Assembly: GCA_963725665.1 (NCBI GenBank)
Contig: CAVRZA010000001.1
Span: 160,001-224,000 of the forward strand
DNA: 64,000 bases
Source of the DNA: an uncultured Actinomycetes bacterium
GTDB taxonomy: Bacteria; Actinomycetota; Thermoleophilia; UBA2241
Direction of reading: 5' to 3'
Under the pieces are notes generated by a model. That model worked only from the letters and a program-made list of their open reading frames with translations, was not told the origin of the DNA and did no database searches. Position numbers and translations under genes: made by a program. Positions 6,668 through 55,024 of this stretch are shown piece by piece. Numbering within the stretch: position 1 is the first letter of the stretch; every line of letters begins with the position of its first letter.

Positions 6668-6704
6668 GGACTGAGAGGCTTCGCCCGCTGGCTTCGGAGA
6701 ACAC

Positions 6705-30772: not shown

Positions 30773-31435
30773 CTACGCGCTGCGCTGCGCTCTGACCTTG
30801 GTGACGAGGTCCTCGACCAGGCGTACAGCGCCGACCGCGTCCGGCGAGTAGCCGTCCGCTCCATACTCCGTGGCGAGCTTCTCTCTCACCGGAGCGCCGC
30901 CGACGATGACCGCCGCGGGGACTCCGGCCTGCTGGGCCAGCTCCACCAGGTCCTTGAGCAACGGCATGGTGCTCGAGAGCAAGGCAGAGGCGGCGATGAT
31001 CTCGGCCTGCGTCTCGCGCTGCTTGTCGACGAACGCCTGCAGCGGCACGTCGATGCCCAGGTCGATCACCTCGAACCCGGCCACCTCGAGCATCAGCTTC
31101 ACGACGTTCTTGCCGATCTCGTGGATGTCGCCCTTGACGGTGCCGAGGACCACCAGGCCGCGCGTCGTGCTCTGCTCGCGGGTCAGGTAGGGTCTCACGA
31201 CCTCGATCGCCTTGGTGAAGATGTCGGCGGAGACGAGCAGCTCGGGCAGGAAGAACTCGCCGCGCTCGAAGCGCTCGCCGGCCTCGGTGATCGCCGGTGT
31301 GAGGCCCGCCTCGATCACCTCCGGTGGCGGCGTGCCGCCGTCGAGCGCCTTTTGCGTGATATCGAGGACCGTCGCCTCGTCGAGATCGAGGAGGGCGGCC
31401 CTAAGCTGACTGTAGCTCTCGGTGCTGCTAGACAT
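30773..31435 (-). CDS. Corrinoid (cobalamin-binding) protein of a methyltransferase system
   Basis: Cap domain (GERFERGEFFLPELL), GTVKGDIHEIGKN (DxHxxG), DLGIDVP, VGGAP, GADGY. Confidence 0.93.
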   Translation of the reverse strand: MSSSTESYSQLRAALLDLDEATVLDITQKALDGGTPPPEVIEAGLTPAITEAGERFERGEFFLPELLVSADIFTKAIEVVRPYLTREQSTTRGLVVLGTVKGDIHEIGKNVVKLMLEVAGFEVIDLGIDVPLQAFVDKQRETQAEIIAASALLSSTMPLLKDLVELAQQAGVPAAVIVGGAPVREKLATEYGADGYSPDAVGAVRLVEDLVTKVRAQRSA

Positions 31436-31454
31436 ACCTGTCCCTTCCTGGTCT

Positions 31455-32537
31455 TCAGCGGGCGAGGCTGCGCGTTGACGAAAGTCGCCGCGGCTCGGTC
31501 TTCATGCCGGCGGCCTCCTTGGAGGCGTCGACCATCGCGACGGCGTTGATGAACGAACCGTTCTGCGGGAACTCACAGCCGGGGCCGAGGATGAACCCGG
31601 TGGGGCCCAAGTCGGCGATCATCTGCTTGCTCTCGGCGACCACCTGGTCGTAGGTGCGCTGCGTCCCCAGCGGCGTGGGCTCCCAGACGCCGTTCAGGCA
31701 GACGCTGCCGTACTTGGCCTTGAACTCGCGCCAATCCGTCGTGCCCTTGGGGAGGCTCCAGAGGCAGTACGCGTCGAAGTCCCCCAGCGCGAAGGCGGCG
31801 TCCACGTAGGGGTTGGGGTCGCAGTCGTGCACCAACAGGTAGGCGCCCTTCTCGCGGATCGCGCGGTGCAGCCGCCGCAGGCAGTCGCCCTCGAGGTCGA
31901 GCCACATCTTCTCACTCATCAGGGAGGCGTTGCCGTAATCGTGGCAGAGCATGATCCAGCGCACGCCGTGGTCGATGACCTGGCGGCAGAACTCGATCTC
32001 CATGTCGGTCACGGCCTCGAGTCCGGCGCGCACGTCGTCGGGGTGGCGCACGCAGTCCATAAGGAGCTGCTGCATGCCGCGCATCTCTCCGAGCGTGACG
32101 AACGGCTCGATCGAGAGCGTGCGCGGCAGGATCTCGTCGCCGGCCAGCTCGGCGATGATCTCGGTCCCCTTGATCTGCTCGCGGAAGCGCGGCGCCTCCA
32201 TCAGGTCGATGGGCTGCAGCTTGTGGTAGTCGTCCGGCGACTTGAGGATGTACTTCTCGGGGTCGGGGAAGGGCGGCTCTTCTTTGAGGTAGATGAGCGG
32301 CTGGCCCCAGGCCTCGGCGAGGACGCACGTGTCGAAGTAGACACCCACGCCGTCGTCGCCGATCAGGTCGTGCCAGGCGAGGTCGGTGAGCGCGCAGAGC
32401 TCGCCGTTGGTGACCATCTCCTGGTAGGTGATGCCGAGCGCGCGCCGGTTGATGCCGCCCTGCTCGCAGAAGACCGGCACGCGGTCGACCTCCTTGCACC
32501 GGAAGGCGGCCTCCATCCGCTCTCGGGACGTCATCAT
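31455..32537 (-). CDS. Uroporphyrinogen decarboxylase/MtaA-CmuA-family putative methyltransferase
   Basis: MTSRERM..AF....VDRVPV, EAWG, HxC (VHDC) and C-terminal ILGPGCE Zn-ligand pattern; co-oriented with the corrinoid protein. Confidence 0.85.
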   Translation of the reverse strand: MMTSRERMEAAFRCKEVDRVPVFCEQGGINRRALGITYQEMVTNGELCALTDLAWHDLIGDDGVGVYFDTCVLAEAWGQPLIYLKEEPPFPDPEKYILKSPDDYHKLQPIDLMEAPRFREQIKGTEIIAELAGDEILPRTLSIEPFVTLGEMRGMQQLLMDCVRHPDDVRAGLEAVTDMEIEFCRQVIDHGVRWIMLCHDYGNASLMSEKMWLDLEGDCLRRLHRAIREKGAYLLVHDCDPNPYVDAAFALGDFDAYCLWSLPKGTTDWREFKAKYGSVCLNGVWEPTPLGTQRTYDQVVAESKQMIADLGPTGFILGPGCEFPQNGSFINAVAMVDASKEAAGMKTEPRRLSSTRSLAR

Positions 32538-32670: not shown

Positions 32671-32687
32671 TGATTGTCAGACAATCA
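32671..32687. promoter_or_regulatory. Putative GntR/FadR operator
   Basis: Perfect palindrome TGATTGTC-A-GACAATCA between the divergent methyltransferase and GntR genes. Confidence 0.7.
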
Positions 32688-32709
32688 CGCGCGTGAGATA
32701 GTGTCAAGC

Positions 32710-33426
32710 ATGACGACTCCCGACCAGATGCGGCAGGCGGGTCACCACGACAGCGGCATGCTGCCGCTGCGTGCCATCGACCGCCGGTCCCTCGCCGACG
32801 AGGTCGCCGAGCGCGTGCGCGAAGCCGTGCTTGCCGGCGCCCTGCGCGCCGGTGAGCGAGTGTCGGACAGCCGTCTGGCGCAGGAGCTTGGCGTCGGGCG
32901 CAGCACCATGCGCGAGGCCTTCCGCATCCTGCTCTCCGAGGGCCTGCTGGAATCGAGGGGTCACGGTGTGCGCATCGCCCAGCTCACCGTCGATGACGTG
33001 CAAGACACCTTCGAGTTGCGGCTGGCGGTCGAGTGCCGCGCGGCTCGCATGGTTGCCGAGCGGCGTGATCCCGAGGACATCGCCGAGCTGAGGGCGATCG
33101 TGGATGAGTACGCACGAGCCGTCGCGGAGGATGACGCGCCGACCGTCGTGCAACTCGACCTGCGCTTTCACGAGACTCTCTGCCGCCTGAGCGGGAGCCG
33201 TCGCCTGCACGAGGCGTTCACTCGCGACGTCGTCAAGATGCTCGTCCTGCTGCAGGTCGACCACGACATCTACCAGCCACTCTCAGACTGGACGGACGAG
33301 CTGCCGCGGATCTTCGCCGCCATCGAGAGCGGTGACGCCGACGCCGCGGGAGCGGCCATCGAGGCGCACATCGAGGGTTCGCGTCACGCACTGGTCGACT
33401 TGGCCAGACAGCAGCGGCTCGCCTAG
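32710..33426 (+). CDS. GntR/FadR-family transcriptional regulator
   Basis: LADEVAERVREAVLAG.L..GER, LAQELGVGRSTMREA, FCD domain (DLRFHETL...SGS). Confidence 0.92.
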   Translation: MTTPDQMRQAGHHDSGMLPLRAIDRRSLADEVAERVREAVLAGALRAGERVSDSRLAQELGVGRSTMREAFRILLSEGLLESRGHGVRIAQLTVDDVQDTFELRLAVECRAARMVAERRDPEDIAELRAIVDEYARAVAEDDAPTVVQLDLRFHETLCRLSGSRRLHEAFTRDVVKMLVLLQVDHDIYQPLSDWTDELPRIFAAIESGDADAAGAAIEAHIEGSRHALVDLARQQRLA

Positions 33427-33472
33427 CTTGCGGCGATCCGGCCGGCCGGCCGGGCTGCGGCGGTGAACTCGG

Positions 33473-34216
33473 TTAGCGTTGGCGGAAGCGGCAGCCGTCG
33501 AGGTCGCAGCTCTCGCAGAGGTGCAACCTGGGGTCGCCCGACGTCGCTTCTGAGACCAGCGGCAGCCAGCAGCTGAAGGTCTTGAGCGGGCGCATGGTGC
33601 CGGCTGCGTCGAGGCTCACGCCGATAGCGGCCGCATCGACGCAGGCGAACAGCTCGTGCTGGAGGGGCGGCGGCAGGGTGCCGACAGCCGGCACCAGAGG
33701 CGCGCCCACGTAAAGGCCTGAGCGGGCGGCGACACGAGCCACGTGCCGCCAGCCGAGCATCTCTAGCGATTCCAGCGCCGCCAGCACGACCGCGTCGAAC
33801 ACCCAGGCGTCGAGCGGCCCGGACGCCGCCGAGAGCTCCGCTCCGGCGGCGTCGGGGCCCGCGCCCATGGTGCAGACCAGGGCGGCCAGGGCGCGCGGTG
33901 TGGCACCGACGGCCTGGACGCCGAACGAGAGCGAGCGGCCGCCGGCCAGCGTGAGACGCTCGCCGGCGGCCGCATCGACGGCGTGCAGGGCGACGGCGTA
34001 ACGGGGCTGAGCGCTCGAGGGTAATAGCGGGGTCACGGCTGCGATACGATCGCGCAGCATGGCACGGGAGCGCGCGCTATCTCCGCCGGCCATCCGCACG
34101 ACGTCGGCGGCGTCAAACGATAACTCCACGACCGACACCTCGACGAGCGTCGTAGTGCCGTCGACGTCCAAGTGGGCGCCGAGCTCCGGCGCCTTCCCGG
34201 TCGGTCCGCTACTCAC
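33473..34216 (-). CDS. Protein resembling a stand-alone B12 methionine synthase activation domain (divergent)
   Basis: ALVCTMG...DA....ALE...Q.ELF...DAAAIGVSL...GTMRPLKTFS and C-terminal CxxC...CxFR; located in the corrinoid locus; RBS aaggaggg. Confidence 0.65.
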   Translation of the reverse strand: MSSGPTGKAPELGAHLDVDGTTTLVEVSVVELSFDAADVVRMAGGDSARSRAMLRDRIAAVTPLLPSSAQPRYAVALHAVDAAAGERLTLAGGRSLSFGVQAVGATPRALAALVCTMGAGPDAAGAELSAASGPLDAWVFDAVVLAALESLEMLGWRHVARVAARSGLYVGAPLVPAVGTLPPPLQHELFACVDAAAIGVSLDAAGTMRPLKTFSCWLPLVSEATSGDPRLHLCESCDLDGCRFRQR

Positions 34217-34423
34217 GCTGCCCTCCTTTGACGACAAGGTCAACGGCCTACGCGAAGCGTACGCCACGCGGCCCGCGCTCCGAAAGGACGCTCGTGCAGG
34301 CTCTGCTGCGGGCAGGAGCCGCCTCGCCGTAGTGCTCTCGGGGCTGCGCTGTTGCTGGGTCCCTGACCGCAGGGCGCGGGCCTCGCATCCGTTGCCCGTC
34401 GTGATATAGGCATTTCATATCTC

Positions 34424-34437
34424 GCTCTATATAGAGC
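34424..34437. promoter_or_regulatory. Palindrome in an AT-rich promoter-like region
   Basis: gctctatatagagc, perfect 14-bp palindrome. Confidence 0.4.
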
Positions 34438-34507
34438 CGGTTCCTGGTATGTCGCTTTGAACTAACTGGATCCTTGGTCACGTCGATCGTCGACGCCGAG
34501 AGGAGAG

Positions 34508-34780
34508 ATGACTATGACTGAAGTCATCGCCGACCCCTCAACGGGGACGAACGTCGTCACGGACCCCTCGACTGGGCTGCGGATGGTCGAGCTCAGTCAC
34601 GTCTGGGGTCACGGCGTTCCATCTCCGCCCGGAGAGACGGACGTCAGGATGGTCCGTGCCGTCAAGCACGTGCAGCACGGGTCCTATCGCGCCGGGCCCG
34701 ATCGAGTCGAGTTCCATGCGGGCACCCGCTCGTTCCTCCCTGCTCCGTGCAGAGTGTGGGGCGAGTCAGATCGAAGCTAA
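34508..34780 (+). pseudogene. Cyclase/kynurenine-formamidase-family N-terminal fragment
   Basis: Strong RBS; MVELSHVWGHGVPSPPG matches the family N-terminus. HxGTHxDxP motif is not intact (HAGTR) and the ORF stops at 90 aa. Confidence 0.55.
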
Positions 34781-34993
34781 CCGTTGAGGCGGACGCCGGC
34801 CGTTGCGCGTTCGCCGAGTCCACCGGGCAGCGTCCGGGGTCGGCATGGGCCGCGACGAGCTCGCGTCGTGTTGCCGCCGCACGCTCCGGTGGCCGCTCCC
34901 GGCGTCCGGGGCGTACGATTCCACTGTCGGCGCGGCCGGGCGAACCACGAGAACGGCGGGCCGCGGCGATGAGGATCCTTCGAGAAGGAAGAG

Positions 34994-36409
34994 GTGAGGC
35001 AGGTGAGTGACGACGGTCTCGAGCAGATCATCGGCGAGCTCTACCCGTATGCGAAGGCGACGACGGCCTATCACTGCGTGCCGGCCGAGCCGGTCGACCG
35101 CGCGGCGATCCTGGCCGAGATCGCCGACATGGCGCACGCCGAGGACGCCCGGGGCGACAAGGGCACGGTGTCAGGGAGCCTCTACTGCGGCGACCACGAC
35201 CACTACCACTTCCTCGGCGAGGTCTTCGACCTCTACTCGCACGCCAACGTGCTGCAGCGCGACATGTACCCGAGCGCCACCAAGTTCGAGGGCGAGATCA
35301 TCGCCATGACCTCCGACCTGCTGCACGGGACGGGTATCGGCGTCGTCACGGGCGGCGGATCGGAGAGCCTCATCACCGCGCTGTACTCCTACCGCGAGGA
35401 TGCGCGCGAGACGCGCGACGTCACCCGCCCGAACGTCGTCATGCCGGTGACTGGCCACGTGGCACTCGACAAGGGCGCGCACTGGCTGGGCGTCGAGATG
35501 CGCCACGCGCCCCTCACCGACGGCTACGTCGCCGACGTCGCCGCGATGGCCGGGCTCATCGACGACCAGACCATCGCCCTCGTCGGCAGCGCGGCCAACT
35601 ACGCGCACGGCCTCATCGACCCCATCGAGGAGATCGCGTCGCTCGCCCAGTCGCACGACATCGGTCTGCACGTCGACGGCTGTCTCGGCGGCTGGCTGCT
35701 GCCGTGGGTCGAGCGTCTCGGGTACGACGTACCGCTCTGGGACTTCCGCGTGCCGGGCGTCACGTCGATCTCGGCCGACACGCACAAGTACGGCTACGCT
35801 CTCAAGGGCTCGAGCGTGCTGCTGTACCGGGACAAGGACCTGCGCAAGCACCAGTACTTCACCTACCCGGACTGGCCCGGCGGTCTCTACGTGTCGCCGG
35901 GCTTCGCCGGCTCGCGCAGCGGCGGCATCCTCTCCTCCACCTGGGCCGCCCTTGTGGCGACGGGGGAGTCGGGCTATCTCGCTGCGGCCGACGCCATCAT
36001 GCGCACCGCCGCGACTATCCGCGACGGCATCCGCGACGGCATCCCCGAGCTCGAGGTCATGGGCGACCCCACGTTCCTCATCGCGTTCAAGGCGGCCGGT
36101 GACCTCGACATCTACCTCGTCAACGACTCGCTCATCGCCCAGGGCTGGCGGATGATCGCCCTGCAGATGCCGCCGGCGCTGCACTTCTGCGTCACGCGGC
36201 CCAACACCGCGCCGGGCCTGGCCGAGTCGTTCCTCGAGGCGCTGCGCGTGGCGGTCGGGTACGCCGCGGAGCACAAGGGCCAGAAAGCCAAGTCGGGCGT
36301 GGTGTACGGCTTCGGCGGCACGCCCTTCGGCAATGAAATGGTGAAGTTCGCGATGGTGCGCTTCCTCGACGCGATGCACGAGGTCGCTCCCGACGCCCCG
36401 GCGTCCTGA
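34994..36409 (+). CDS. Sphingosine-1-phosphate-lyase-like PLP enzyme
   Basis: VSGSLY, HANVLQRDMYPSATKFEGEIIAM, HGLIDPIEEI, LHVDGCLGG, SISADTHKYGY (PLP Lys), WPGGLYVSPGFAGSRSGG. Confidence 0.85.
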   Translation: MRQVSDDGLEQIIGELYPYAKATTAYHCVPAEPVDRAAILAEIADMAHAEDARGDKGTVSGSLYCGDHDHYHFLGEVFDLYSHANVLQRDMYPSATKFEGEIIAMTSDLLHGTGIGVVTGGGSESLITALYSYREDARETRDVTRPNVVMPVTGHVALDKGAHWLGVEMRHAPLTDGYVADVAAMAGLIDDQTIALVGSAANYAHGLIDPIEEIASLAQSHDIGLHVDGCLGGWLLPWVERLGYDVPLWDFRVPGVTSISADTHKYGYALKGSSVLLYRDKDLRKHQYFTYPDWPGGLYVSPGFAGSRSGGILSSTWAALVATGESGYLAAADAIMRTAATIRDGIRDGIPELEVMGDPTFLIAFKAAGDLDIYLVNDSLIAQGWRMIALQMPPALHFCVTRPNTAPGLAESFLEALRVAVGYAAEHKGQKAKSGVVYGFGGTPFGNEMVKFAMVRFLDAMHEVAPDAPAS

Positions 36410-36410
36410 C

Positions 36411-38027
36411 ATGGGTGATCGCTGGATCCTGGCCATCGACCACGGCAACGGCAGCTCGAAGGTCGCCGTGTGCTCGCTCGAGGGCGAGGTGCTCGCGACC
36501 GGTCTGCGCCCCGTCCACGTGCACGTGGGGTTCGACGGTTCGGCGACGCAGGACGCCGTCGAATGGTGGGTCGCGCTGCGCGAAGCGGCGCGCGAGGCGA
36601 TTGAGCGCGCCGGAGCCGGCCGCGACGAGCTGCACGCGGTCGCGATCACAGGACAGTGGGCTTCGTCCGTGCCCGTCGGCGCCGACGGTCAGCCGGTGGG
36701 CGAGGTGTTGCTGTGGTCTGACACACGCGCGCGCGACCTCGCGCGCGAGGTCATCGGGGGGCCGGTCACCGTGGGCGGCTTCGCGCCGCACAAGGTGCTG
36801 CCGTTCGTTCGCATCACCGGCGGGGCGCCGTCGCCGAGCGGCGCCGACCCCACCGGCCACTCGCTGCTGCTGCGCGAGCGGCTCACCGAGGTCTACGCGA
36901 AGACCGCCCTGATCCTGGAGCCGGTCGACTACCTCGGGCTGAGGTTCACCGGCCGGTCAGCCGCGACGCCCGCGTCGATGATCGCCTCATGGATCACCGA
37001 CAACCGTCCCGGCGCACCGCTGGGCTACGTCGGCTCGCTCGTCGCGAAGACGCGGCGAGACCCGGCGCGCCTGCCCGAGCTCATCCCGACCGGCTCCGTG
37101 CTCGGCCCGCTGCTGCCCGAGGTCGCGTCAGAGCTCGGCGTCGCGCCGGGGGCGCCGGTCGTCTGCGGTATCCCCGACCTGCATGCCGCCGTTGTGGGCT
37201 CGGGAGCCGTCGCGCCGTTCGAGACTCACATCGCGGTGTCCACCACGTCGTGGATCGGCGCCCGCGTGCCGTTCAAGCGCACCGACATCCTGCATCAGAT
37301 CGCGACCGTCCCGGGTCTCGACCCCGCGCACCCTATCGTGGCGAACAACCAGGAGACCGGCGGGGCCTCGCTGCGCTGGCTGCGCGAGCAGATCGTCGCG
37401 CCCAACGACGACCTGCCCGGCGGCGGCAGCGGCATCGGGGCGAGTGGTGCGGCCGGGGAGACGCTCTCGCCGACGTTCGACGACCTTATCCGCCTTGCGG
37501 AGCGTGCCCCGGCGGGCTGCGAAGGGCTGCTGTTCATGCCGTGGCTCGACGGCGAACGATGCCCGGCAGAGGACAAGGTCGTGCGTGCGGGGTGGCTGAA
37601 CGCGTCGTTGCGCACCGATCGCGCGATGCTGGTGCGCTCGGTGCTCGAGGGCGTGGCCTACAACTCGCGGTGGCTGCTCGACGCCTATGAGAAGTACCTC
37701 AAGCAGCCCGTCCCCAAGCTGCGCATCCTCGGGGGCGGCGCGCAGAGCGATCTGTGGTGCCAGATCTACGCCGACATCCTCGGACGCCCGGTCCAGCAGG
37801 TGGCCGACCCCCGGCACGCGCAGTTGCGCGGCGTCGCCCTGTGGGCGCGAGTCTGCCTGGGCGAGCTCACCCTGGAGGACGTGCCCGCCTTCGTGCCCGT
37901 CCCCGCGACGTTCGCACCGTCAGCCGACACGCGGGCATACGCCGAGGGATACGCGGAGTACCGCAAGCTCTTCGGCAAGCTCAAAGGGCTCTACCACCGG
38001 CTGAACTCGAGGAAGGTGAGGTCGTGA
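36411..38027 (+). CDS. FGGY-family carbohydrate kinase (xylulokinase-like)
   Basis: LAIDHGNGSSKVA, QDAVEWW, ITGQW, LWSDTR, LLFMPWLDGERCP, RSVLEGVAY, GGGAQSDLWCQIYADIL. Confidence 0.9.
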   Translation: MGDRWILAIDHGNGSSKVAVCSLEGEVLATGLRPVHVHVGFDGSATQDAVEWWVALREAAREAIERAGAGRDELHAVAITGQWASSVPVGADGQPVGEVLLWSDTRARDLAREVIGGPVTVGGFAPHKVLPFVRITGGAPSPSGADPTGHSLLLRERLTEVYAKTALILEPVDYLGLRFTGRSAATPASMIASWITDNRPGAPLGYVGSLVAKTRRDPARLPELIPTGSVLGPLLPEVASELGVAPGAPVVCGIPDLHAAVVGSGAVAPFETHIAVSTTSWIGARVPFKRTDILHQIATVPGLDPAHPIVANNQETGGASLRWLREQIVAPNDDLPGGGSGIGASGAAGETLSPTFDDLIRLAERAPAGCEGLLFMPWLDGERCPAEDKVVRAGWLNASLRTDRAMLVRSVLEGVAYNSRWLLDAYEKYLKQPVPKLRILGGGAQSDLWCQIYADILGRPVQQVADPRHAQLRGVALWARVCLGELTLEDVPAFVPVPATFAPSADTRAYAEGYAEYRKLFGKLKGLYHRLNSRKVRS

Positions 38028-39313
38028 ACGATCGCTACCGCGTCTACGGCTACCGCTGGGTGGTCCTGGCGGTCTTCATGCTCGTCAACCTCACGATCCA
38101 GGTGCTGTGGATCAGCTACGCGCCGATCAACAGCCTCGCCTCGAAGTACTACGGCGTCTCCGACCTGGCGATCGGCGCCCTGGCGATGTCGTTCATGGTC
38201 GTCTTCATCCCGATGGCGCTTCCGGCCGCCTGGGTGATCGACACGCGGGGCTTTCGCCGGGCCGTCGGCGTGGGCGTCGTGCTGATGTCCGTCTTCGGCG
38301 TCGCCCGCGGGCTGGCCGGGACGAGCTACACGCTGGTGCTGCTCAGCACCCTCGGCATCGCCGTCGCCCAGCCGTTCCTGCTGGACGCGTGGACCAAGGT
38401 ACCGGCCAACTGGTTCGCGCCGCGCGAGCGTGCGACGGCCGTAGGCCTGATCACGCTCGCCAGCATGCTCGGGATCGCGGTCGGCATGGTGCTCTCGCCG
38501 ATCCTCGCCGACGCGATGTCGATCGCCTCCCTGCAGCTCATCTACGGCGGGCTGGCGGCCGCCTCGGCGGTCGCGTTCCTCGCGCTGGCGCGCGAGCACC
38601 CGGCGACGCCGCCGTGCCCTCCCGAGATGGAGGAACGAGCGCTGATGCTCGACGGCCTGCGGCACGCGCTCAGGGTGAGGCCGTTCCTGGTCATGCTGGG
38701 TGTCGCCTTCATCGTCATGAGCGCCTTCAACGGCGTGACGACCTGGGTCGAGGAGATCATCCACCCTCGCGGCTTCAGCACCAACGACGCCGGCGTCATG
38801 GGCGCCCTGATGTTGCTGGCTGGGATCATCGGGGCGGTCGTCCTCTCGGCTCTCTCGGATCGCCGAGGCAAGCGCGTCCGCTTCATGGTGATCGCCCTGG
38901 TGGCCGCCATACCGGGGATCCTCGGTGTCGCGTTCGTATCGTCCGCGCTGCTTCTCTACGCCTTCGCCGCGCTCCTCGGCTTCTTCCTCGTCGCCGTGCT
39001 GCCGATCGGCATGCAGTACGCCGCGGAGATCACCAACCCCACGCCCGAGGGCACGTCCAATGGGCTCATCCAGCTCTGCGGGCAGGCTTCGGTGGTCTCC
39101 GTCTACATCATGGCCGCGTTGCGCACGTCGAACGGCTCGTTCACGGTGTCGCTCCTGTTGCTGGCGGGCCTGCTCGCCGCCTGCGCCCTGGCGCTGTCGC
39201 GCCTCAAGGATGCAGGGCTTGTGGTCGCGCCCGCCACCGTTGCGACTGTCGCCGCCGGAGGGCTGCGCGAGGAGCTTGCTGGGACGGTCCCGCCGGCGTC
39301 AGCCGGCGACTGA
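38024..39313 (+). CDS. MFS transporter (FLVCR/SLC49-like pattern)
   Basis: Y.YRWVVL, W.SYAPI, AQPFLL...KVPANWF...ERATA, EITNPTPEGTSNG; ~12 TM; GTGA overlap with the kinase. Confidence 0.85.
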   Translation: MNDRYRVYGYRWVVLAVFMLVNLTIQVLWISYAPINSLASKYYGVSDLAIGALAMSFMVVFIPMALPAAWVIDTRGFRRAVGVGVVLMSVFGVARGLAGTSYTLVLLSTLGIAVAQPFLLDAWTKVPANWFAPRERATAVGLITLASMLGIAVGMVLSPILADAMSIASLQLIYGGLAAASAVAFLALAREHPATPPCPPEMEERALMLDGLRHALRVRPFLVMLGVAFIVMSAFNGVTTWVEEIIHPRGFSTNDAGVMGALMLLAGIIGAVVLSALSDRRGKRVRFMVIALVAAIPGILGVAFVSSALLLYAFAALLGFFLVAVLPIGMQYAAEITNPTPEGTSNGLIQLCGQASVVSVYIMAALRTSNGSFTVSLLLLAGLLAACALALSRLKDAGLVVAPATVATVAAGGLREELAGTVPPASAGD

Positions 39314-39440
39314 CCCGCAAGGGAGTCGGTCTACCTCACCGGGGGTGTAGGCTGTAGGCGCCGGCTGGGCCGGCCTCGTGTGCTCACGACCCCGTCGCGT
39401 GCCGCGCGACGGTCGCAACACCGTTTGGGAGGAGATCCGG

Positions 39441-41033
39441 ATGGCGACGATCGTCGCGGACAGTGCGCTGCAGGAACGACAGTGGTCGTCGAGGGTGGGC
39501 TCGGCCATGCTCGCGCGCCTGGCGGCGCGCGCGGCCGTGGCCGAGCCCACCGAGACGATGCCCGTCGAGATGCCCTTCACCGGCGAGACGCTCGGCGAGG
39601 TGCCCGAGGGGCGGGCCGCCGACGTCGAGCAGGCCGCCGGCGCCGCGCGCGCGGCGCAGGCGGCCTGGGCGCAGCGGCCCGCCGCAGAGCGTGCCGCCAT
39701 CTTCCTGCGCTTCCACGACCTGCTCATCGACAACGCGCACGAGGTCCTCGATCTCATCCAGCTCGAGAACGGCAAGGCCCGCCGCCACGCCTTCGAGGAG
39801 GTCCTCGACGTCGCCATCCAGGCGCGCTACTACGCGCATACGGCCGAGGACTTCCTGCGCCCGCGCCGCCGCCAGGGCGCGCTACCGGTGCTCACCAAGA
39901 CCTTCGAGTTGCACCATCCCCGCGGCGTCATCGGGATGATCTCTCCGTGGAACTACCCTCTCATTCTGACCATCGGTGACGCCGTCCCCGCGCTGCTCGC
40001 CGGCAACGGGGTCATCCTCAAGCCCGACGCGCAGACGCCGTTCGTGGCACTCTGGGGAGTCGCGCTGCTCGTCGAGGCCGGCCTGCCGCGCGAGCTGCTG
40101 CAGGTGGTCACCGGTCGCGGCTCCGAGCTGGGCGGGCCGATCATTGAGGCGACCGACTACCTCATGTTCACGGGCTCGACGGACACCGGCAAGAGGGTGG
40201 CGGCAAAGGCGGCGTCACAGCTCAAGGACTACGCCATGGAGCTGGGCGGCAAGAACCCGCTCCTGGTCCTGCCCGACGCGGGCCTCGGCGCCGCCACAGC
40301 GGGCGCCGTGCGCGGCATCTGCTCGAACAGTGGCGAGCTCTGCGTCGGCATCGAGCGGCTCTACGTGCACGACGCCGTCTATGACGCCTTCGTCCCGAAG
40401 CTCGCTCAGGCCATGCGTGAGGTGCGCCTCGGCGCGGGACTCGACTTCAGCGCGGACATGGGCTCGCTGATCAGCGCCCAGCAGCTCGCCACGATCGAGG
40501 CGCACGTGGATGACGCCGTAGGAAAGGGGGCCGAGGTGCTGGCGGGCGGGCGCGCCCGCCCCGACCTCGGCCCCTACTTCTACGAGCCGACGTTGCTCGT
40601 CGGTGTCACCGAGGACATGGCCGTGTGCCGCGCCGAGACGTTCGGCCCTGTGGCCGCGGTCTACCGCTGCACGTCGGTCGACGAGATGGTGGCGCGCGCC
40701 AACGACACCGCGTATGGCCTCAACGCCAGCGTCTGGACGCGCGATGCGCGCACAGGCCTGGAGGTCGCCGAGCGTCTGCAGGCGGGCACCGTCAATGTCA
40801 ACGAGGCCTACGCGGCAAGCTGGGCCTCGGCCAGCCCGATGGGCGGCTTCAAGGAGTCGGGGATGGGGCGGCGTCACGGCGCTACCGGCATCCTGAAGTA
40901 CACCGAGGCGCAGACCGTGGCGACGCAGAGGCTGCTCGCCATCGACACGCCGCCGTTCCTCAAGCACGAGCAGTACGCGACCGTGATGAGTCTGGCGATG
41001 CGCGTGCTCAAGCGCACGCCCGGCATCCAGTGA
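39441..41033 (+). CDS. NAD(P)-dependent aldehyde dehydrogenase (GabD2-like)
   Basis: ISPWNYP, FTGST, MELGGKNP, GELCVG (catalytic Cys), ETFGPV, GGFKESG. Confidence 0.93.
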   Translation: MATIVADSALQERQWSSRVGSAMLARLAARAAVAEPTETMPVEMPFTGETLGEVPEGRAADVEQAAGAARAAQAAWAQRPAAERAAIFLRFHDLLIDNAHEVLDLIQLENGKARRHAFEEVLDVAIQARYYAHTAEDFLRPRRRQGALPVLTKTFELHHPRGVIGMISPWNYPLILTIGDAVPALLAGNGVILKPDAQTPFVALWGVALLVEAGLPRELLQVVTGRGSELGGPIIEATDYLMFTGSTDTGKRVAAKAASQLKDYAMELGGKNPLLVLPDAGLGAATAGAVRGICSNSGELCVGIERLYVHDAVYDAFVPKLAQAMREVRLGAGLDFSADMGSLISAQQLATIEAHVDDAVGKGAEVLAGGRARPDLGPYFYEPTLLVGVTEDMAVCRAETFGPVAAVYRCTSVDEMVARANDTAYGLNASVWTRDARTGLEVAERLQAGTVNVNEAYAASWASASPMGGFKESGMGRRHGATGILKYTEAQTVATQRLLAIDTPPFLKHEQYATVMSLAMRVLKRTPGIQ

Positions 41034-41099
41034 GCGGGGGCATCCGATGAGGACTGGAAAGGCAGGGAGGACACCGAGACCGACGGGGCGGGTGGCGCC

Positions 41100-41957
41100 A
41101 TGACCCTCGTTGCGACCAAGCACGTGCTCGTCACCGGCGGAGCCTCGGGCATCGGGCGCGGCCTCGTGCTGCGCTGCGCCGCGCTGGGTGCGGCGGTGAG
41201 CATCCTCGACCTCGACGAGGGCGGCGCCGAGCGGGCGGCCGCCGAGGCGGCCGCCCTCGGCGCCGCCCAGGCCGCCGGCTACGCCTGCGACGTGAGCGAC
41301 CGCGGCCAGGTGGCCGCAGTCGCCGAGCGGGTGCGAGCCGAGCTCGGGCCGGTCGACATCCTGGTCAACAACGCCGGTGTCGTCAGTGGCCAGTCGCTCC
41401 TCGACCTGAGCGACGAGCGCATCGAGAAGACGTTTGGCGTCAACACCCTGGCCCTGTTCTGGGTGACGCGCGCCTTCTTGCCGGCCATGGTCGCTCGCGA
41501 CAGCGGCCACGTCGTCGTGGTGGCGTCGGCGGCGGGCCTCATCGGCTCGCCTCGCGAGACCGACTACGCGGCCAGCAAGCACGCCGCCGTCGGCTTCACT
41601 GAGGCGCTGCGCTTCGAGCTGCGGCGCAGCGCCCCGCACGTGCGCACCACCGTCGTCTGCCCCTTCTACATCGACACGGGCATGTTCGCCGGCGTCAAGA
41701 CGCGCTTCCCGCTGCTGCTGCCGATCCTGCGCGAGGACGACGTCGTCGAAGCGGTCTTGCACGCCATCCAGCGCGACCGGCCCGTGGTGCAGATGCCGTT
41801 CATGGTGCGCACGCTGCCGGCGATGCGCCTGCTGCCGACCTGGGCCTTCGACCGCTTGGCCGACTTCTTCGGCGTCACCGCTGCCATGGACGAGTTCACC
41901 GGGCGCGGGCCGGCGGCGCCGGCGACGTCGCCCGAGCCGGCCGGGCAGGTGGAGTAG
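41100..41957 (+). CDS. Short-chain dehydrogenase/reductase (retinol dehydrogenase / 17b-HSD11-like)
   Basis: TGGASGIG, CDVSD, LVNNAGV, DYAASK, CPFYIDTGMF. Confidence 0.92.
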   Translation: MTLVATKHVLVTGGASGIGRGLVLRCAALGAAVSILDLDEGGAERAAAEAAALGAAQAAGYACDVSDRGQVAAVAERVRAELGPVDILVNNAGVVSGQSLLDLSDERIEKTFGVNTLALFWVTRAFLPAMVARDSGHVVVVASAAGLIGSPRETDYAASKHAAVGFTEALRFELRRSAPHVRTTVVCPFYIDTGMFAGVKTRFPLLLPILREDDVVEAVLHAIQRDRPVVQMPFMVRTLPAMRLLPTWAFDRLADFFGVTAAMDEFTGRGPAAPATSPEPAGQVE

Positions 41958-42168
41958 GGCCTCTGGCTACACCACACGCTGACTGCGCCTGAGCGGCCCC
42001 TCGCCGGAGGTAGAGACCGTCCGGTCGCTACCCCCACGGAGGCTCGCTGGCGGGGCGCAGAATCCTCCTGCAGACGACCGTGAGTTCCTACGTCCGGTGG
42101 ACGCGCTGAGCCTCGCGCCTCCCCTAAGCTGTGTCACAGGTCACGGAGACACGCACGAGGAGGACATC

Positions 42169-42766
42169 ATGAGCTCGATCGCGACCACGCAGGGAGAGGC
42201 CGGTCGCAGCCTCGACATCGGCCTGGCCTTCAAGCGGGCCTGGGGATTGTTCGTCAAGGACATCGCCCCGCTGCTCATCGGGGCGCTCATCGCCGGAGTG
42301 CTCAGCATCCTGACAGTCGGCATCCTGGCCGGCCCGCTGTTCGCCGGCCTGTACGGCATGGTGATCGGCCGCGTCAGGGACGGACGGCCGGCGCACGTGG
42401 GCGACGTCTTCGCCGGCCTGGGGCGCTTCTGGTCGTACTTCGCCGCCGCGCTCGTGCTGGTGATCCTCATCGGCCTGGCGTCGCTGACCATCGTCGGCGG
42501 CTTCTTGCTGGCCACCATCTGGATCTACGTGTTCCCGCTCATGGTGGACCGCCGCATGGGCCTGGGCGAGGCCATGAGCACCAGCAAGGACATGGTCATG
42601 AAGTCGGGCTTCTGGGAGCACCTGGCGCTCGTCCTCGATCGGTTTCGTCATCGCCGCCGTGGCCAACGGCGCGCTGGCGATCGTCGCCACGCCGTTCCTG
42701 GTCGTGCTCGTCTCGGCGGCCTACTTCGTGGCCGACGACAACGAGGCGACGCTCGCGAAAGCCTGA
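42169..42766 (+). CDS. Hypothetical membrane protein (1-nt frameshift near 42637)
   Basis: RBS gaggagga; hydrophobic helices continue in the shifted frame to TGA at 42766. Confidence 0.7.
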
Positions 42767-42789
42767 CACCGACGAGGTGACATCGGATG

Positions 42790-42825
42790 ACGACGCGCGG
42801 GCCGCTAAAGCGGCCCGCGCGTCGT
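42790..42825 (+). terminator. Intrinsic terminator-like hairpin
   Basis: acgacgcgcgggccgc-taaa-gcggcccgcgcgtcgt followed by tt. Confidence 0.65.
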
Positions 42826-42879
42826 TTCCGCTACCTCATGCTAGGCTGGGCGCGACTCTGGCAAGGCAGGAGGTCCCAC

Positions 42880-43826
<947 letters not shown>

Positions 43827-43830
<4 letters not shown>

Positions 43831-45429
43831 GCGCCTTCGCCGGCATCGGCCCCCTCGTACGGCTTGCCCTGCGCCGCGACCGCATCATGGTGGCCGCGTG
43901 GATCGCGGCCTTCGCGGTGGTCGCGGCGTTCTCGGCCTCGGCCACGGTCGACCTCTACCCGTCGTTGGCTTCGCGGATCGAAGCGGCCTACGCGATCAAC
44001 CGCTCCCAGGCGTTGGTAGCCCTGTACGGACGGGTCTACGACCCGTCCTCCACGGGCGCTCTCGCCATGATCAAGACCGGGGGGCTGGGGGCGGTGTTCG
44101 TCGCGATGCTGACGGTCGTCCTCGTGGTGCGCCACACTCGCGCCGACGAGGAATCGGGGCGGCTCGAGCTCGCCGGCGGCACGGCCATGGGCCGCCGTGC
44201 CCCGCTGGGCGCCGCCCTCGTCGCCGCCGTGATCACGAACCTCGTGCTGGCTGTGGTAACCGCGGGCGCTCTGGCTGCCACCGGGCTCCCCGTCGACGGC
44301 TCGCTTGCGTTCGGCCTCGCCTGGGCCGGCGTGGGGCTCGCGTTCGCCGCGATCGCTGCCGTCGCCGCCCAGGTGACCACCAGCGCACGGACCGCCACCG
44401 CGCTCTCGGCCGCGATCCTGGCCATCGTGTACGTTCTGCGCGCCGGGGGCGACACCGCGAGCGAGGGCGGCCCCCGCTGGCTGAGCTGGCTGTCGCCGAT
44501 CGGCTGGGCCCAGCAGTTCCGGCCCTACGCGGGGAACCGCTGGTGGGTGCTGCTCATCACCCTCGGCTTCGCCGTCGCGGTCGCGGGCATCGCGTTCGCA
44601 CTGGCGGCGCGGCGCGACCTCGGCGCCGGCCTGCTGGCCACGCGAAGCGGACCGGCGAGCGCGAGCGGGCTGCTGCGCAGCCCGCTCGCGCTCGCCTGGC
44701 GGCTCCACCGCGGCGCACTCCTCGGCTGGGCCGTCGCCTTCGGTCTGGTCGGCGTGCTGCTCGGCGGCCTGGCGTCGAACGTGGGGGAGTTCCTCAACAA
44801 CCCCAACGCGCGCGACTTCATCACGAAGCTCGGCGGCGAGAAGGCACTCAGCGACGCCTTCCTGGCGGTGGAGCTCGGCTTCGCCGGCGTGATCGCGTCG
44901 GCCTACGGCATCCAGGTCGTGATGCGCTTGCGGTCCGAGGAGACGGGCCTACATGCCGAGCCCGTGCTCGCCACGGCTGTCGGCCGCGTCCGCTGGGCGC
45001 TGAGCCACATCCTCGTCGCGATCGTCGGCACCACGCTGCTGCTGGCGCTCGTCGGCACCGGTGCCGGCCTCGCCCGCGGCGCCCAGGCGGGCGACATGAG
45101 CCAAGCCGGTCCCGTGTTCACGGCGGCCCTCGTGCAGCTACCCGCGGTGTGGGTCCTCGCAGCCATCGTCGTGGCCGCCTTCGGTCTGGCTCCCCGGTTG
45201 ATCGCGGTCGGCTGGGTGGCGCTGGCCGGCTTCGTCGTGCTCGGTGAGCTGGGACCCTTGCTGGACCTCGACCAGTGGGTCCTGGACCTCTCTCCCTTCG
45301 CCCACGTGCCCAAGCTCCCCGGCGGGACGTTCAGCGCCACGCCGATTGCTCGCGCTGACCGCGGTCGCCGCGCTGCTCGGAGCCGCCGGTCTCGCCGGGC
45401 TCCGCCGCCGCGACATCGCAAGCTCCTAG
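43827..45429 (+). CDS. ABC exporter permease (actinobacterial antibiotic-exporter type; frameshift near 45345)
   Basis: [35 protein letters not shown]; terminal RRRDI lies in the shifted frame. Confidence 0.85.
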
Positions 45430-45465
45430 GGTCTGGACGGCGTCAAGAGGTCTGACTCAGAACAG

Positions 45466-46257
45466 CTAGAGTGGCAAACGCGCCGCTGCCGGATGCAGCA
45501 GGCTTTGGACCTGCGGCGCGTAGAGACGCTCGACCGCGGTCCTGCGCATGCCCAGGGCCCGCAGCTCCTCGGCGATCGGGTGGTCTCCCAGGTCGCAGGA
45601 CGCGCCTCCTCTGAAGCGGGCGATGCTCAGCTCGCCCTCTGCCTGGATCCGTGTGCGCAGAAGCTGACCGTCCTTGACCGTGTAGCTGAACAGGTCCAAG
45701 GATCTCGCTCTGGTCGCCGACTTGGCGACTTCCAGGGTGGCGATGGCCTTGCCGTCGGCCCGGAGCCGGCAGCGGCGTGCCCGGCCTGTCTCCTCGAAGC
45801 TGATCTCGGCGACGAACTTGGGATATCCCCAGATCTCGACCCCGAAGACATAGGCCTCCTGCGTCGTCACGGGCAGATGATGGACGTAGAGACCGAAGCG
45901 CTCGAACCTGTCCGGGGCAAGCAGGGGCAGCGCTGGGATGTTGCGAGCGGGTTCGTAGAGAACCGGCACCATGATCCCGAACTCGTTGTAGGGCTCCACA
46001 TCCGCGATGCGGCGGTACTCCATGGCCGCCATCGATACGATGCCTGTTCCCGGTACGAGCTCGGCTGGCTTGAGCCTGTCGCTGGGCAGCAGCTTGCGGA
46101 GCGCCGCGGCAGGTGCGGGGAAGTGGGCCATCATCGCAGACCACTCGTAGTAGCGGACAGGAAGCCCGATACGAGCTCCAGTGGAGAGCTCCATCTCTTC
46201 GACCCTCACACCGGCAAAGTCCTCGAGTGTGGCGAGGCCGGCAGCAGCGATGCTCAT
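45466..46257 (-). CDS. Acetoacetate decarboxylase-like (ADC superfamily) protein
   Basis: LPVRYY, EY...DVEPYNE, LPVT, GVEIWGYPK (Schiff-base Lys). Confidence 0.8.
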   Translation of the reverse strand: MSIAAAGLATLEDFAGVRVEEMELSTGARIGLPVRYYEWSAMMAHFPAPAAALRKLLPSDRLKPAELVPGTGIVSMAAMEYRRIADVEPYNEFGIMVPVLYEPARNIPALPLLAPDRFERFGLYVHHLPVTTQEAYVFGVEIWGYPKFVAEISFEETGRARRCRLRADGKAIATLEVAKSATRARSLDLFSYTVKDGQLLRTRIQAEGELSIARFRGGASCDLGDHPIAEELRALGMRRTAVERLYAPQVQSLLHPAAARLPL

Positions 46258-46434
46258 GGCCCTCCCTCCGTGACGCTTCCAGGAAGCCGTCAGCGTGTCC
46301 GCCGGCTTCCGCGGTTATACGCACCTCCAACTGTACAGCGACACTGACGGCTTTCCACTTCTGGCCCCGTCTCGAGCCGGTGTAGCATGCCTCACCGACG
46401 GCAGCCGCCGGCCACGCAGGGTCGAGGAGGTCAC

Positions 46435-47229
46435 ATGGCACCCACCAACGAGACCATCGCGCTCATGGGCAAGCGCTGTTCCACGCGCTCGTATGCGCCG
46501 ACGCCGATCAGCGACGACGAGAAGCGCACGATTCTGCACACGGCGATGCGCGCCCCCACGGCCGGCAACCTGATGCTGTACTCGATCATCGAGATCGACG
46601 ACCAAGCGCTCAGGGACCGCTTGGCCGAGACGTGCGACCACCAGCCGTTCATCGCCAGGGCGCCCTGGCTGCTGCTCTTCGCCGCCGACGCGCAGAAGTG
46701 GATGGACCTGTTCGGCGTCGCCGGTGTGGAGCGCCTCGAGGGCGTGCGTCGGGAGGTCACTCCGGGTCTCGGCTGGCTCATCCTCGCCTGCTGTGACGCG
46801 CTGATCGCGGCGCAAAACGCGGTCATCGCGGCCGAGTCGCTCGGCATCGGCTCGTGCTACATCGGCGATATCCTGGAGCTGGGCGAGACGCACGCCGAGC
46901 TGCTGGACCTGCCGCGGTACACGTTCCCCGTCACGATGCTGTGCTTCGGCAGGCCGAAGGGCCGGCGACACGTCGTCGAGCGCTACGAGAAGCACATGGT
47001 CCACAGGAACGCGTACCGTCGCTTGAACGCCGCCGAGCTGCGCGAGGTCTCGGACGACCTCGACCGGCTCTACGGCGCGCACGGCTTTGGTGGCTTTGAG
47101 AACTACGCCCAGGAGGCCTACGCGGGCAAGGTTGCAGCTGACTTCGCCCTTGAGGCCGACCGCTCGGTGGCCTGGTGGCTCGAGCGTTGGATGGGAGGGC
47201 GCAGCGCCATTCGCCCCGAGCGGTCCTAG
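46435..47229 (+). CDS. Nitroreductase (NfsA/Frp-like)
   Basis: RCSTRSY, APTAGNLMLYSII, DALIAAQNAVIAAESLGIGSCYIG. Confidence 0.9.
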   Translation: MAPTNETIALMGKRCSTRSYAPTPISDDEKRTILHTAMRAPTAGNLMLYSIIEIDDQALRDRLAETCDHQPFIARAPWLLLFAADAQKWMDLFGVAGVERLEGVRREVTPGLGWLILACCDALIAAQNAVIAAESLGIGSCYIGDILELGETHAELLDLPRYTFPVTMLCFGRPKGRRHVVERYEKHMVHRNAYRRLNAAELREVSDDLDRLYGAHGFGGFENYAQEAYAGKVAADFALEADRSVAWWLERWMGGRSAIRPERS

Positions 47230-47639
47230 GCGCGCCCGATAGCGAGGGGCACCCCGGTGAGCCCTAGGTGGTAATCGGTCGACCAGATCGTCCGTACATG
47301 ATGCGCTGTGCTGACGTAGAGGCCAACGGCGTCGGTCATGGTGAGGTCCCGGTCTGAGAAGCGCCGCAGCAGGCGGACGCCTGCGGCCTGCTCCTCGGGG
47401 CCGACGGCGAGCACTTGCAGCGGTGTCATGGCCTCGATCATTGCCAGGAACTGCAACGCCCGGGTCCGGTCGTAGCGTCGGAGGAACCAGCCGTGACCCT
47501 CAGCGACCACGAGGGTCGTCGTGAGCAGAACGGGCGGCTGGCCGAACAACCGCCGAAAGAGCGGATGATACGAATCCGAGCCGTCGGTGAACGCGATCAG
47601 CGCCGAGGTGTCGACGTAGGCGTCAGCCCTTGTGGCCAT
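47226..47639 (-). CDS. vapC: PIN-domain toxin
   Basis: AYVDTSALIA, VVAE, TMTDAV, WSTDYH acidic PIN residues. Confidence 0.88.
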   Translation of the reverse strand: MATRADAYVDTSALIAFTDGSDSYHPLFRRLFGQPPVLLTTTLVVAEGHGWFLRRYDRTRALQFLAMIEAMTPLQVLAVGPEEQAAGVRLLRRFSDRDLTMTDAVGLYVSTAHHVRTIWSTDYHLGLTGVPLAIGRA

Positions 47640-54985: not shown

Positions 54986-55024
54986 GACGAGACGCTCTCC
55001 CGACCGTTCGCTTTCGAGTAGTCT

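Follow-up and report, generated by a model that had tools for sequence, protein, structure and literature searches.

The DNA analysed here, a stretch of 64,000 nucleotides (nt) from contig CAVRZA010000001.1 of an uncultured actinobacterium of the class Thermoleophilia (hereafter the window), carries five consecutive genes on its plus strand. They encode a pyridoxal 5'-phosphate (PLP)-dependent enzyme of the sphingosine-1-phosphate (S1P) lyase family, a kinase of the FGGY family, a FLVCR-like transporter of the major facilitator superfamily (MFS), an aldehyde dehydrogenase (ALDH) and a short-chain dehydrogenase/reductase (SDR). A previous interpretation, made from the letters alone (the sequence-only reading), had proposed that these genes form an operon for the catabolism of sphingoid bases or amino-polyols. 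In this study, we show that the conserved unit is the pair of lyase and kinase genes and not a five-gene operon. The coordinates of these genes and of further features are given in Table 1.

Table 1. Features of the locus and its surroundings, in positions of the window
Feature	Position	Strand	Basis
726-nt region 5' of the lyase gene, with GGAAGAGG ribosome-binding site ahead of the GTG start	34268-34993	.	sequence
S1P-lyase-family PLP enzyme, 471 amino acids (aa), without N-terminal membrane anchor (soluble form)	34994-36409	+	phmmer against PDB
Divergent FGGY-family kinase, 538 aa, proposed amino-diol kinase	36411-38027	+	FGGY_N + FGGY_C
FLVCR-like MFS transporter, 429 aa, probable amino-alcohol importer	38024-39313	+	MFS_1 1.7e-40
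NAD(P)-dependent aldehyde dehydrogenase, GabD2 type	39378-41033	+	Aldedh 474 bits; NF006916
Classical short-chain dehydrogenase/reductase	41100-41957	+	adh_short 182 bits
Nitroreductase-family gene travelling with the cluster	46387-47229	+	Pfam
Class II aldolase / HemL-like class III aminotransferase fusion, 750 aa	48039-50291	-	Pfam
HAD phosphatase, phosphoglycolate-phosphatase-like, divergent from the fusion gene	50715-51419	+	HAD_2

All five genes were found where the sequence-only reading had placed them, and the tight coupling that it described for the first three was confirmed. The kinase gene starts 1 nt past the lyase stop codon and the GTG start of the MFS gene overlaps the TGA stop of the kinase gene (GTGA), while the ALDH gene follows the MFS gene after a gap of 64 nt and the SDR gene follows the ALDH gene after 66 nt. 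Two longer, mechanically listed open reading frames (ORFs), 37754-39313 and 38107-39357, were rejected as the MFS gene; the latter is without Pfam match, and the MFS_1 match was obtained from frame 38024-39313 only. The G+C content of the DNA is 62-72% and the nearest homologues are found in metagenome-assembled genomes (MAGs) of Thermoleophilia. At gathering threshold Rfam detected no family anywhere in the window, and on 901 nt around the lyase start it gave a single match at chance level (E=0.7). A consensus scan of positions 33400-42900 found no sigma-70-like promoter, and terminator-like sites occurred there at chance rate (2 versus 1.8 expected).

The motifs from which the first gene had been read as an S1P-lyase-type enzyme, HVDGCLGG, ADTHKYGY and WPGGLYVSPGFAGSRSGG, are all found in its translation. 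Compared with all chains of the PDB by phmmer, the enzyme scored 438.4 bits against the S1P lyase of Burkholderia pseudomallei (5k1r), 425.1 bits against the Symbiobacterium enzyme StSPL (3mad), 327 and 320 bits against the yeast and human enzymes and 186 bits against that of Legionella, versus approximately 81 bits for glutamate decarboxylase (GAD) and MfnA. Its Pfam family is Pyridoxal_deC, and it stays below the NCBIfam cut-offs of both decarboxylase models (MfnA, 200 versus 299; GAD, 121 versus 380). Judged by these sequence scores, the PLP enzyme is a member of the S1P lyase family and does not group with the amino-acid decarboxylases. A separate search of lyase representatives yielded 150 unnamed proteins without gene context and was of little further help.

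The StSPL residues in contact with PLP and phosphate were taken from a structural review (PMC10243590). Their counterparts were read off the printed alignment, in which the chain index equals the native numbering plus one, as anchored by K311, H310 and D274. These three PLP residues correspond to K265, H264 and D228 of the window lyase, and the phosphate and phosphoethanolamine contacts Y105, N126, K317 and S353 correspond to Y64, N85, K271 and S307. G168/T169 are represented by G122/S123, A103 by Ser62 and H129 by Gln88, the last as in the active B. pseudomallei enzyme. Among 69 lyase sequences (the window and 68 of the loci described below, with at least 90% coverage), all of these positions, Gln88 and Ser62 included, are invariant in 69/69, two of them showing Ser/Thr exchange only. 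Because these residues are invariant in the orthologues, the substrate should carry a -CH(NH2)-CH2-O-phosphate group. The window lyase begins near StSPL residue 48. For the B. pseudomallei enzyme, the closest characterised lyase, turnover of S1P is slow, with a kcat of 0.015 per s and a KM of 48 uM (PMC5234717). At such a low kcat, this lyase subfamily may have a native substrate other than S1P.

The kinase carries both FGGY domains (Pfam; FGGY_N 74.4 bits, FGGY_C 84.7 bits) and reaches none of the named subfamilies. All 12 NCBIfam models, compared for xylulokinase, gluconokinase, glycerol kinase, ribulokinase, autoinducer-2 kinase, fuculokinase and rhamnulokinase, remained below cut-off, the best being XylB with 176.8 versus 380.25, and the best solved structure scored 97.7 bits. 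Residues D10, D256 (within GIPDLHAA) and G441-G443-A444 are invariant in 19/19 sequences; they may represent the catalytic aspartate and the GGGA-type nucleotide motif. The best 120 clusters of relatives are 73-86% identical to the window kinase. Many relatives have been annotated as xylulokinase by the Joint Genome Institute (JGI), and the few clusters with taxon labels belong to Thermoleophilia, Nanopelagicales, Frankiales and Limnocylindria. The substrates of characterised FGGY kinases are soluble sugars and polyols (C3-C7), and ketoses are the usual ones; we know of no FGGY kinase that acts on a lipid and of none that acts on an amino acid. Known sphingosine kinases, by comparison, are of the diacylglycerol kinase (DAGK) type. 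In support of the earlier proposal of a kinase of another family, the 53 window ORFs scanned with Pfam include no DAGK domain. The window has one FGGY kinase only.

For the conservation of the pair, an alignment of 19 kinases was searched against one genome per species of bacteria and archaea (185,579 species), and 273 stretches were found to encode a relative of the kinase. The locus counts given here rest on the best 80 of these 273 stretches (kinase identity 55-85%), all of them MAGs or uncultured records. By their record labels 71 are actinobacterial, including 17 Thermoleophilia and 14 Nanopelagicales or Nanopelagicaceae, eight are labelled 'uncultured bacterium' and one Deltaproteobacteria. 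Neighbouring genes were called by a codon-position GC rule; lyase, kinase and MFS genes were counted by tblastn with the window proteins, since protein cluster 0 merges lyase, kinase and some MFS genes.

A lyase gene lies directly upstream of the kinase gene and on the same strand in 78/80 loci. The contigs of the two remaining loci (L055 and L063) end 53 and 119 nt before the kinase gene, so that all 78 informative loci are paired, and the prediction that the pairing is conserved was thus borne out. Recurrence at this rate, with both misses devoid of upstream sequence, places the adjacency beyond chance. The median gap between lyase stop and kinase start is 1 nt (n=77), which indicates coupling of the two genes; 68 of the 77 gaps lie between -10 and +25 nt, and a long spacer (1,025 nt; L050:8984-10010) is found in one locus only. 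The identities of lyase and kinase to their window counterparts co-vary (r=0.86, n=78). Farther away, the 990-aa database protein P0271 has a lyase part (50% identical) and behind it, after scrambled sequence, a kinase part (43%), and appears to represent adjacency in a more distant lineage and not a true fusion. The lyase frame also reads through into the kinase in L022:6914-10105 and L045:8450-11653 (1064 and 1068 aa), and likewise in L032:8414-11608, where the lyase C-terminus is frameshifted. As these could be assembly indel errors or pseudogenes, all four cases were rejected as fusions attesting coupling and were counted as adjacency only. In L047 another Pyridoxal_deC-type gene (16369-17763, minus strand), lyase-sized at 464 aa, is found 5 kb downstream of the pair.

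Three S1P-lyase-like genes on plasmids (31-38% identity) were inspected and have no FGGY kinase within 7 kb; they adjoin amino-acid-type genes, or serC and a polyketide synthase. The pairing of lyase and FGGY kinase therefore belongs to this actinobacterial clade.

The other three genes accompany the pair less regularly. Orthologues of the MFS gene are found near it in 12/80 loci, of the ALDH gene in 12/80 and of the SDR gene in 7/80. One or more of the three occur in 15/80 loci, all of which, with kinase identities of 74% or more, belong to the closest relatives. They lie on either side and on either strand of the pair and in variable order. A single conserved five-gene operon, as previously supposed, is therefore not what the genomes contain: the five-gene arrangement is one of several settings of a two-gene core. 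That the three genes are kept with the pair despite rearrangement suggests that they share its function.

Among solved structures, the MFS protein is related to FLVCR1 (134.9 bits) and FLVCR2 (124 bits), the next family scoring 25 bits, which agrees with its earlier assignment as FLVCR-like. In the printed alignment four of the five residues of the FLVCR1 ligand pocket are kept: W125, Q214, F348 and Q471 correspond to W29, Q116, F235 and Q354, and Y349 is replaced by Asn236. The same pattern holds in 13/13 orthologues (12 loci and the window). The pocket residues of FLVCR1 hold the amine and the hydroxyl of ethanolamine and choline, and betaine, a carboxylate, is neither bound nor transported (PMC11168923). 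By this resemblance the window transporter probably imports an amino alcohol. The ALDH had been proposed to oxidise the aldehyde. Its solved relatives are generic, and it does not resemble a fatty-aldehyde enzyme but exceeds the cut-off of NF006916, the model for GabD2-type succinic-semialdehyde dehydrogenases (763.7 versus 521). The closest solved structures to the SDR are the 17-beta-hydroxysteroid dehydrogenases (17-beta-HSD) 11 and 13, with 160.7 and 150.9 bits.

Elsewhere the pair is found in other company. A regulator of the DeoR family is divergent from the lyase gene in four loci (L005, L010, L014, L016); it scores best, though in each case below cut-off, with the GlpR, AgaR and SrlR models. 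DeoR-family regulators usually sense phosphorylated sugars or polyols. In approximately 26 loci the pair follows prfB, ftsE, ftsX, M23 and S41 peptidase genes and smpB (e.g. L039, L054 and L070, 6-8 kb upstream); a TetR regulator lies between this run and the pair in four of them, and none has a transporter or an ALDH. Nine loci, including lake lineages, have a G+C content of 45-51%. In six of these an APC-family permease gene precedes the pair in the same orientation, and a different SDR is divergent from the lyase in five of the six as well as in L058, which is without permease. Further settings include another APC permease (L061) and an acetolactate decarboxylase with an SDR (L053, L057), as well as an amidase-signature enzyme directly before the lyase (L051). 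No xylose isomerase or sugar transporter and no ceramidase or glycosidase recurs near the pair, and the amidase is confined to L051. A 680-690-aa protein with a sulfatase-type domain lies upstream of the pair on the same strand in L047, L051, L061 and L065, preceded by an unassigned 483-523-aa protein in L047, L051 and L065 and not in L061; in size the sulfatase-type protein matches LtaS or phosphoethanolamine-transferase-like proteins.

Ten kb downstream of the core genes, on the opposite strand, lies a gene that the sequence-only reading had missed and that probably represents a second branch of the same metabolism. It encodes a class II aldolase domain (residues 12-185; 84 bits against fuculose-phosphate aldolases) fused to a HemL-like class III aminotransferase domain (residues 340-659). 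The two best matches of the window kinase among 72,556 plasmids lie in Burkholderia ambifaria (38% identity) and Butyrivibrio fibrisolvens (30%), and in both a class II aldolase gene and a class III aminotransferase gene come next. With the corresponding domains of the fusion, the aminotransferases share 66.7% and 57.5% identity and the aldolases 39.6% and 34.3%, for B. ambifaria and Butyrivibrio, respectively. In the reverse search these were the only two plasmids with more than 40% identity to the aminotransferase domain, all others being of hemL type with at most 37%. Across three phyla, then, the kinase clade is associated with enzymes that handle amines and cleave C-C bonds. The hosts of the triads live with plant material, in the rumen and the rhizosphere. 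The Butyrivibrio triad includes a GtrA-family gene. In B. ambifaria the cluster further comprises SDR and ALDH genes, with an MFS gene nearby; the ALDH (30% identity) and the SDR (no match) were rejected as orthologues of those in the window.

Two of the 80 loci, L010 and L068, have the fusion gene no more than 10 kb from the pair. The protein itself is common, with both domains present at 70-86% identity (70-80% where it aligns over the whole length) in no fewer than 119 other clusters, and five fusion-bearing contigs have exactly the length of kinase-bearing ones (650,236; 1,410,412; 25,598; 225,196 and 48,382 bp), from which we infer that they are the same contigs. The HAD phosphatase divergent from the fusion gene scores 117.1 bits with TIGR01449, below the cut-off of 180, and its membership of the system is uncertain. 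L005, L007, L010, L014, L016 and L068 have an orthologue of the nitroreductase gene (66-79% identity) at a distance of 6-8 kb downstream from the kinase gene. The window encodes a second class III aminotransferase, HemL/GntE-like, at 10408-11769, which shares 33% identity with the corresponding domain of the fusion. Two short ORFs come next; as the second aligns only to the C-terminal portion of a xylose-isomerase-like TIM barrel, they may be a split gene.

Taken together, we tentatively propose a route in which a hydrophilic 2-amino-1,3-diol is phosphorylated and then cleaved to phosphoethanolamine and an aldehyde, a reading to which we give somewhat less than an even chance. The translationally coupled pair would act on the head group CH2OH-CH(NH2)-CH(OH)-R. 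The FGGY kinase would phosphorylate the hydroxymethyl group next to the amine-bearing carbon; the lyase would then form the external aldimine and split the C2-C3 bond by retro-aldol cleavage, releasing phosphoethanolamine and R-CHO. The kinase would have to act first, since the cation-type importer would bring in the unphosphorylated compound, and the sole candidate for its phosphorylation is the coupled FGGY gene. In the window and its closest relatives, the FLVCR-like transporter would import the free amino alcohol, the ALDH would oxidise the aldehyde, and the SDR would either reduce the aldehyde or prepare the substrate. The fusion enzyme would probably perform a second split, in which transamination at C2 yields a ketose 1-phosphate that is cleaved to dihydroxyacetone phosphate (DHAP) and an aldehyde.

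Of the two substrate classes originally considered, long-chain bases and amino-polyols, the genomic context leans towards the hydrophilic one. The substrate range of FGGY kinases, the DeoR regulators, the APC permease and the small-ligand pocket of the FLVCR-like transporter favour a soluble compound. Transporters of amine type have been recruited twice, as the FLVCR-like protein and as the APC-family permease of the low-GC loci, which we count in favour of the proposed route. Most likely, the substrate is a small, water-soluble amino-polyol, serinol-like or 2-amino-2-deoxy-alditol-like, and not a C18 lipid base. Of the original interpretation, then, the lyase family, the pairing and the FLVCR-like transporter are retained, and the five-gene operon and the fatty-aldehyde dehydrogenase are not.

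Compared with known systems, the window lyase is of the same family as SGPL1, yeast Dpl1p, StSPL and Burkholderia S1PL2021 by score, PLP lysine, PLP-phosphate contacts and substrate-phosphate residues, and would be expected to share their chemistry, retro-aldol cleavage to phosphoethanolamine. Unlike these enzymes, the window lyase has no membrane anchor, and the lyases of its clade are in all informative loci followed by an FGGY kinase; their hosts are free-living uncultured actinobacteria of soil and lakes and not pathogens, and their substrate is probably not a host signalling lipid. The logic of eukaryotic sphingoid-base degradation, in which the C1 hydroxyl is phosphorylated, the C2-C3 bond cleaved and the aldehyde oxidised, would be shared. 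Here, however, the kinase is of the FGGY and not the DAGK fold, the ALDH is of GabD2 type, and an importer and sugar-phosphate-type regulators are attached to the bacterial pair. 

L-Fucose and L-rhamnose catabolism use an FGGY kinase (FucK, RhaB), a class II aldolase (FucA, RhaD) and a lactaldehyde dehydrogenase or reductase. There, likewise, an FGGY kinase forms a 1-phosphate, the carbon chain is cleaved to a small phosphate ester and an aldehyde, and the aldehyde is passed to a dehydrogenase or reductase. The proposed pathway may be seen as an amine analogue of these routes, differing in that C2 would carry an amine and not a keto group, that the cleavage would be PLP-dependent and one bond earlier, and that phosphoethanolamine and not DHAP would be formed. 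The routes for ethanolamine, 1-amino-2-propanol and 5-hydroxylysine combine an amino-alcohol kinase with a PLP-dependent phospho-lyase. In these, too, phosphorylation activates the amino alcohol and a PLP enzyme acts on the phosphate ester, but the kinases are APH/choline-kinase-like and the class III phospho-lyases eliminate phosphate without breaking a C-C bond.

The choline and ethanolamine transporters FLVCR1 and FLVCR2 (SLC49) are the only strong solved relatives of the window transporter. In contrast to them it is bacterial, lacks the eukaryotic N-terminal extension and has Asn at the position of Y349, which may make room for an extra hydroxyl. The plasmid triads of B. ambifaria and Butyrivibrio have aminotransferases and aldolases orthologous to the fusion enzyme and the nearest plasmid homologues of the kinase, yet the latter are only 30-38% identical to it and no S1P-lyase-type gene is found in the triads.

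Several points weigh against the proposed route. In soil, peat or lakes, we know of no particular small 2-amino-1,3-diol that would be an abundant natural nutrient. C18 S1P is a substrate of the nearest characterised lyases, the SDR resembles the lipid-acting 17-beta-HSD11 and 17-beta-HSD13, and the regulator adjacent to the pair in four loci is of TetR type, members of which often bind hydrophobic ligands. The setting behind the smpB run, in approximately 26 loci, would be equally in line with a housekeeping, an anabolic or a catabolic role. The ALDH scores above the cut-off for succinic-semialdehyde dehydrogenases, whose product is explained by none of the proposed substrates. The fusion gene is near the pair in the window and in just 2/80 loci, and given their low or absent similarity the ALDH and SDR steps of the B. 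ambifaria cluster are analogous at best.

Some of these points would suit the catabolism of long-chain sphingoid bases, in which the kinase would phosphorylate sphinganine, sphingosine or phytosphingosine from eukaryotic or Bacteroidota lipids and the lyase would deliver phosphoethanolamine and a fatty or 2-hydroxy fatty aldehyde to the ALDH and SDR. We regard this as the most serious alternative, though an unlikely one. Besides the C18 substrate of the characterised lyases and the nature of the SDR, the exchange of H129 for Gln is shared with the B. pseudomallei enzyme. Most loci are without a transporter, which a base that partitions into the membrane would not need, the 3,4-diol of phytosphingosine would suit the aminotransferase and class II aldolase branch, and the triad hosts occur together with plant material, in the rumen and the rhizosphere. 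Yet an FGGY kinase acting on a lipid would, to our knowledge, be without precedent. Soluble substrates are suggested by the DeoR regulators, by the APC permease of the low-GC loci and by a transporter pocket that, as in FLVCR, would suit small amino alcohols; the ALDH is of GabD2 type, and beside the single amidase of L051 no ceramidase or glycosidase recurs near the pair. The housekeeping setting after smpB, without transporter or ALDH, would rather agree with an anabolic or salvage role. In such a scheme the kinase would phosphorylate a ketose, the normal type of FGGY substrate, an aminotransferase, e.g. that of the fusion, would make a 2-amino-alditol 1-phosphate and the lyase would supply the cell with phosphoethanolamine, or an endogenous amino-polyol phosphate would be recycled. 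The retention of the pair in loci of 45-51% G+C, the GtrA-family gene of the Butyrivibrio triad, a family linked to cell-surface glycan synthesis, and the HAD phosphatase beside the fusion gene are in line with it. We nevertheless hold it to be improbable, as importer-type transporters, ALDH, SDR and substrate-responsive regulators have been recruited repeatedly, bacteria usually make phosphatidylethanolamine without free phosphoethanolamine, and the aminotransferase is absent from the 10-kb flanks of 78/80 loci.

The lyase-like enzyme might also decarboxylate or cleave a phosphorylated hydroxy-amino acid, the kinase acting on serine, 4-hydroxythreonine or a similar compound, e.g. with phosphoserine giving phosphoethanolamine. 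The group II decarboxylase fold with its match to Pyridoxal_deC, a phosphate pocket that would accommodate a -CH2-O-phosphate side chain, and an ALDH of a type suited to acid-aldehydes are compatible with this. The scores for true decarboxylases are, however, five-fold below those for S1P lyases and the MfnA and GAD models far below their cut-offs. Betaine shows that a carboxylate is not accepted in the FLVCR pocket (PMC11168923). Together with the want of any FGGY amino-acid kinase known to us, this leaves little probability for such a substrate. Finally, the annotation of the kinase as xylulokinase by JGI pipelines, and the xylulokinase-family clusters among the Atlas neighbours of kinase homologue P0022, could be taken to mean that an ordinary pentulose kinase and an orphan lyase are neighbours by descent only and serve unrelated pathways. 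This is very hard to reconcile with an adjacency that persists in 78/78 loci, with kinase identities as low as 55%, and also in P0271 (43%), as all other neighbours change. The 1-nt gaps indicate coupling, the XylB score is less than half its cut-off, and neither a xylose isomerase nor a sugar transporter recurs nearby.

The remainder of the window holds several further gene groups. Past the SDR gene, positions 42097-47639 encode a 227-aa protein without family, common only to L005, a DrrA-like ATPase of the ATP-binding cassette (ABC) type, a 542-aa permease, an acetoacetate-decarboxylase-family protein, the nitroreductase and a PIN-domain protein. On the minus strand at 30773-32537, a gene for a corrinoid-binding protein (MtbC/MtgC-type models, below cut-off) adjoins one for an MtaA/CmuA-family methyltransferase, just upstream of a GntR/FCD regulator gene (32674-33426); the two resemble a small system for corrinoid methyl transfer, and no gene for a substrate-specific methyltransferase was noted next to them. 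Three consecutive genes encode B12-binding radical SAM proteins (53531-55039, minus; 55025-56461, plus; 56471-57859, minus). Positions 5009-12645 include a peptide/nickel-type ABC transporter (SBP_bac_5, a 601-aa double permease and an ATPase), which precedes the second aminotransferase gene.

In the literature searched, from which subscription journals were largely absent, we found no published pairing of an S1P lyase with an FGGY kinase, no serinol catabolism through phosphoethanolamine and no triad of kinase, aldolase and aminotransferase; nor does such a pairing appear among the matches listed for bacterial sphingosine kinases, lyases and operons, as judged by their titles and the openings of their abstracts. 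We put forward, with reserve and at less than even probability, that the proposed amino-diol route is a widespread actinobacterial pathway. Its FGGY enzyme, feeding an S1P-lyase-type enzyme, would be a kinase for 2-amino-1,3-diol head groups of sphingoid type, the first one that is not of DAGK type, with a parallel aminotransferase/aldolase branch leading to DHAP. The bacterial 'S1P lyases' would in origin be amino-polyol-phosphate lyases of nutrient metabolism and not host-directed effectors. Relatives are present in up to 273 species genomes, mostly from uncultured lineages of soil, peat and lakes.

If true, this would constitute a new catabolic route and a new class of substrates both for FGGY kinases and for enzymes of the S1P lyase family, and the kinase would be useful for making amino-diol phosphates. 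It would assign a function to a gene pair of many uncultured Actinomycetota, including the low-GC lake lineages, and would suggest that soil and fresh water contain a so far overlooked pool of amino-alcohol nutrients. Bacterial homologues of S1P lyase, now mainly regarded as tools against host sphingolipids, would then have to be seen in a different light.

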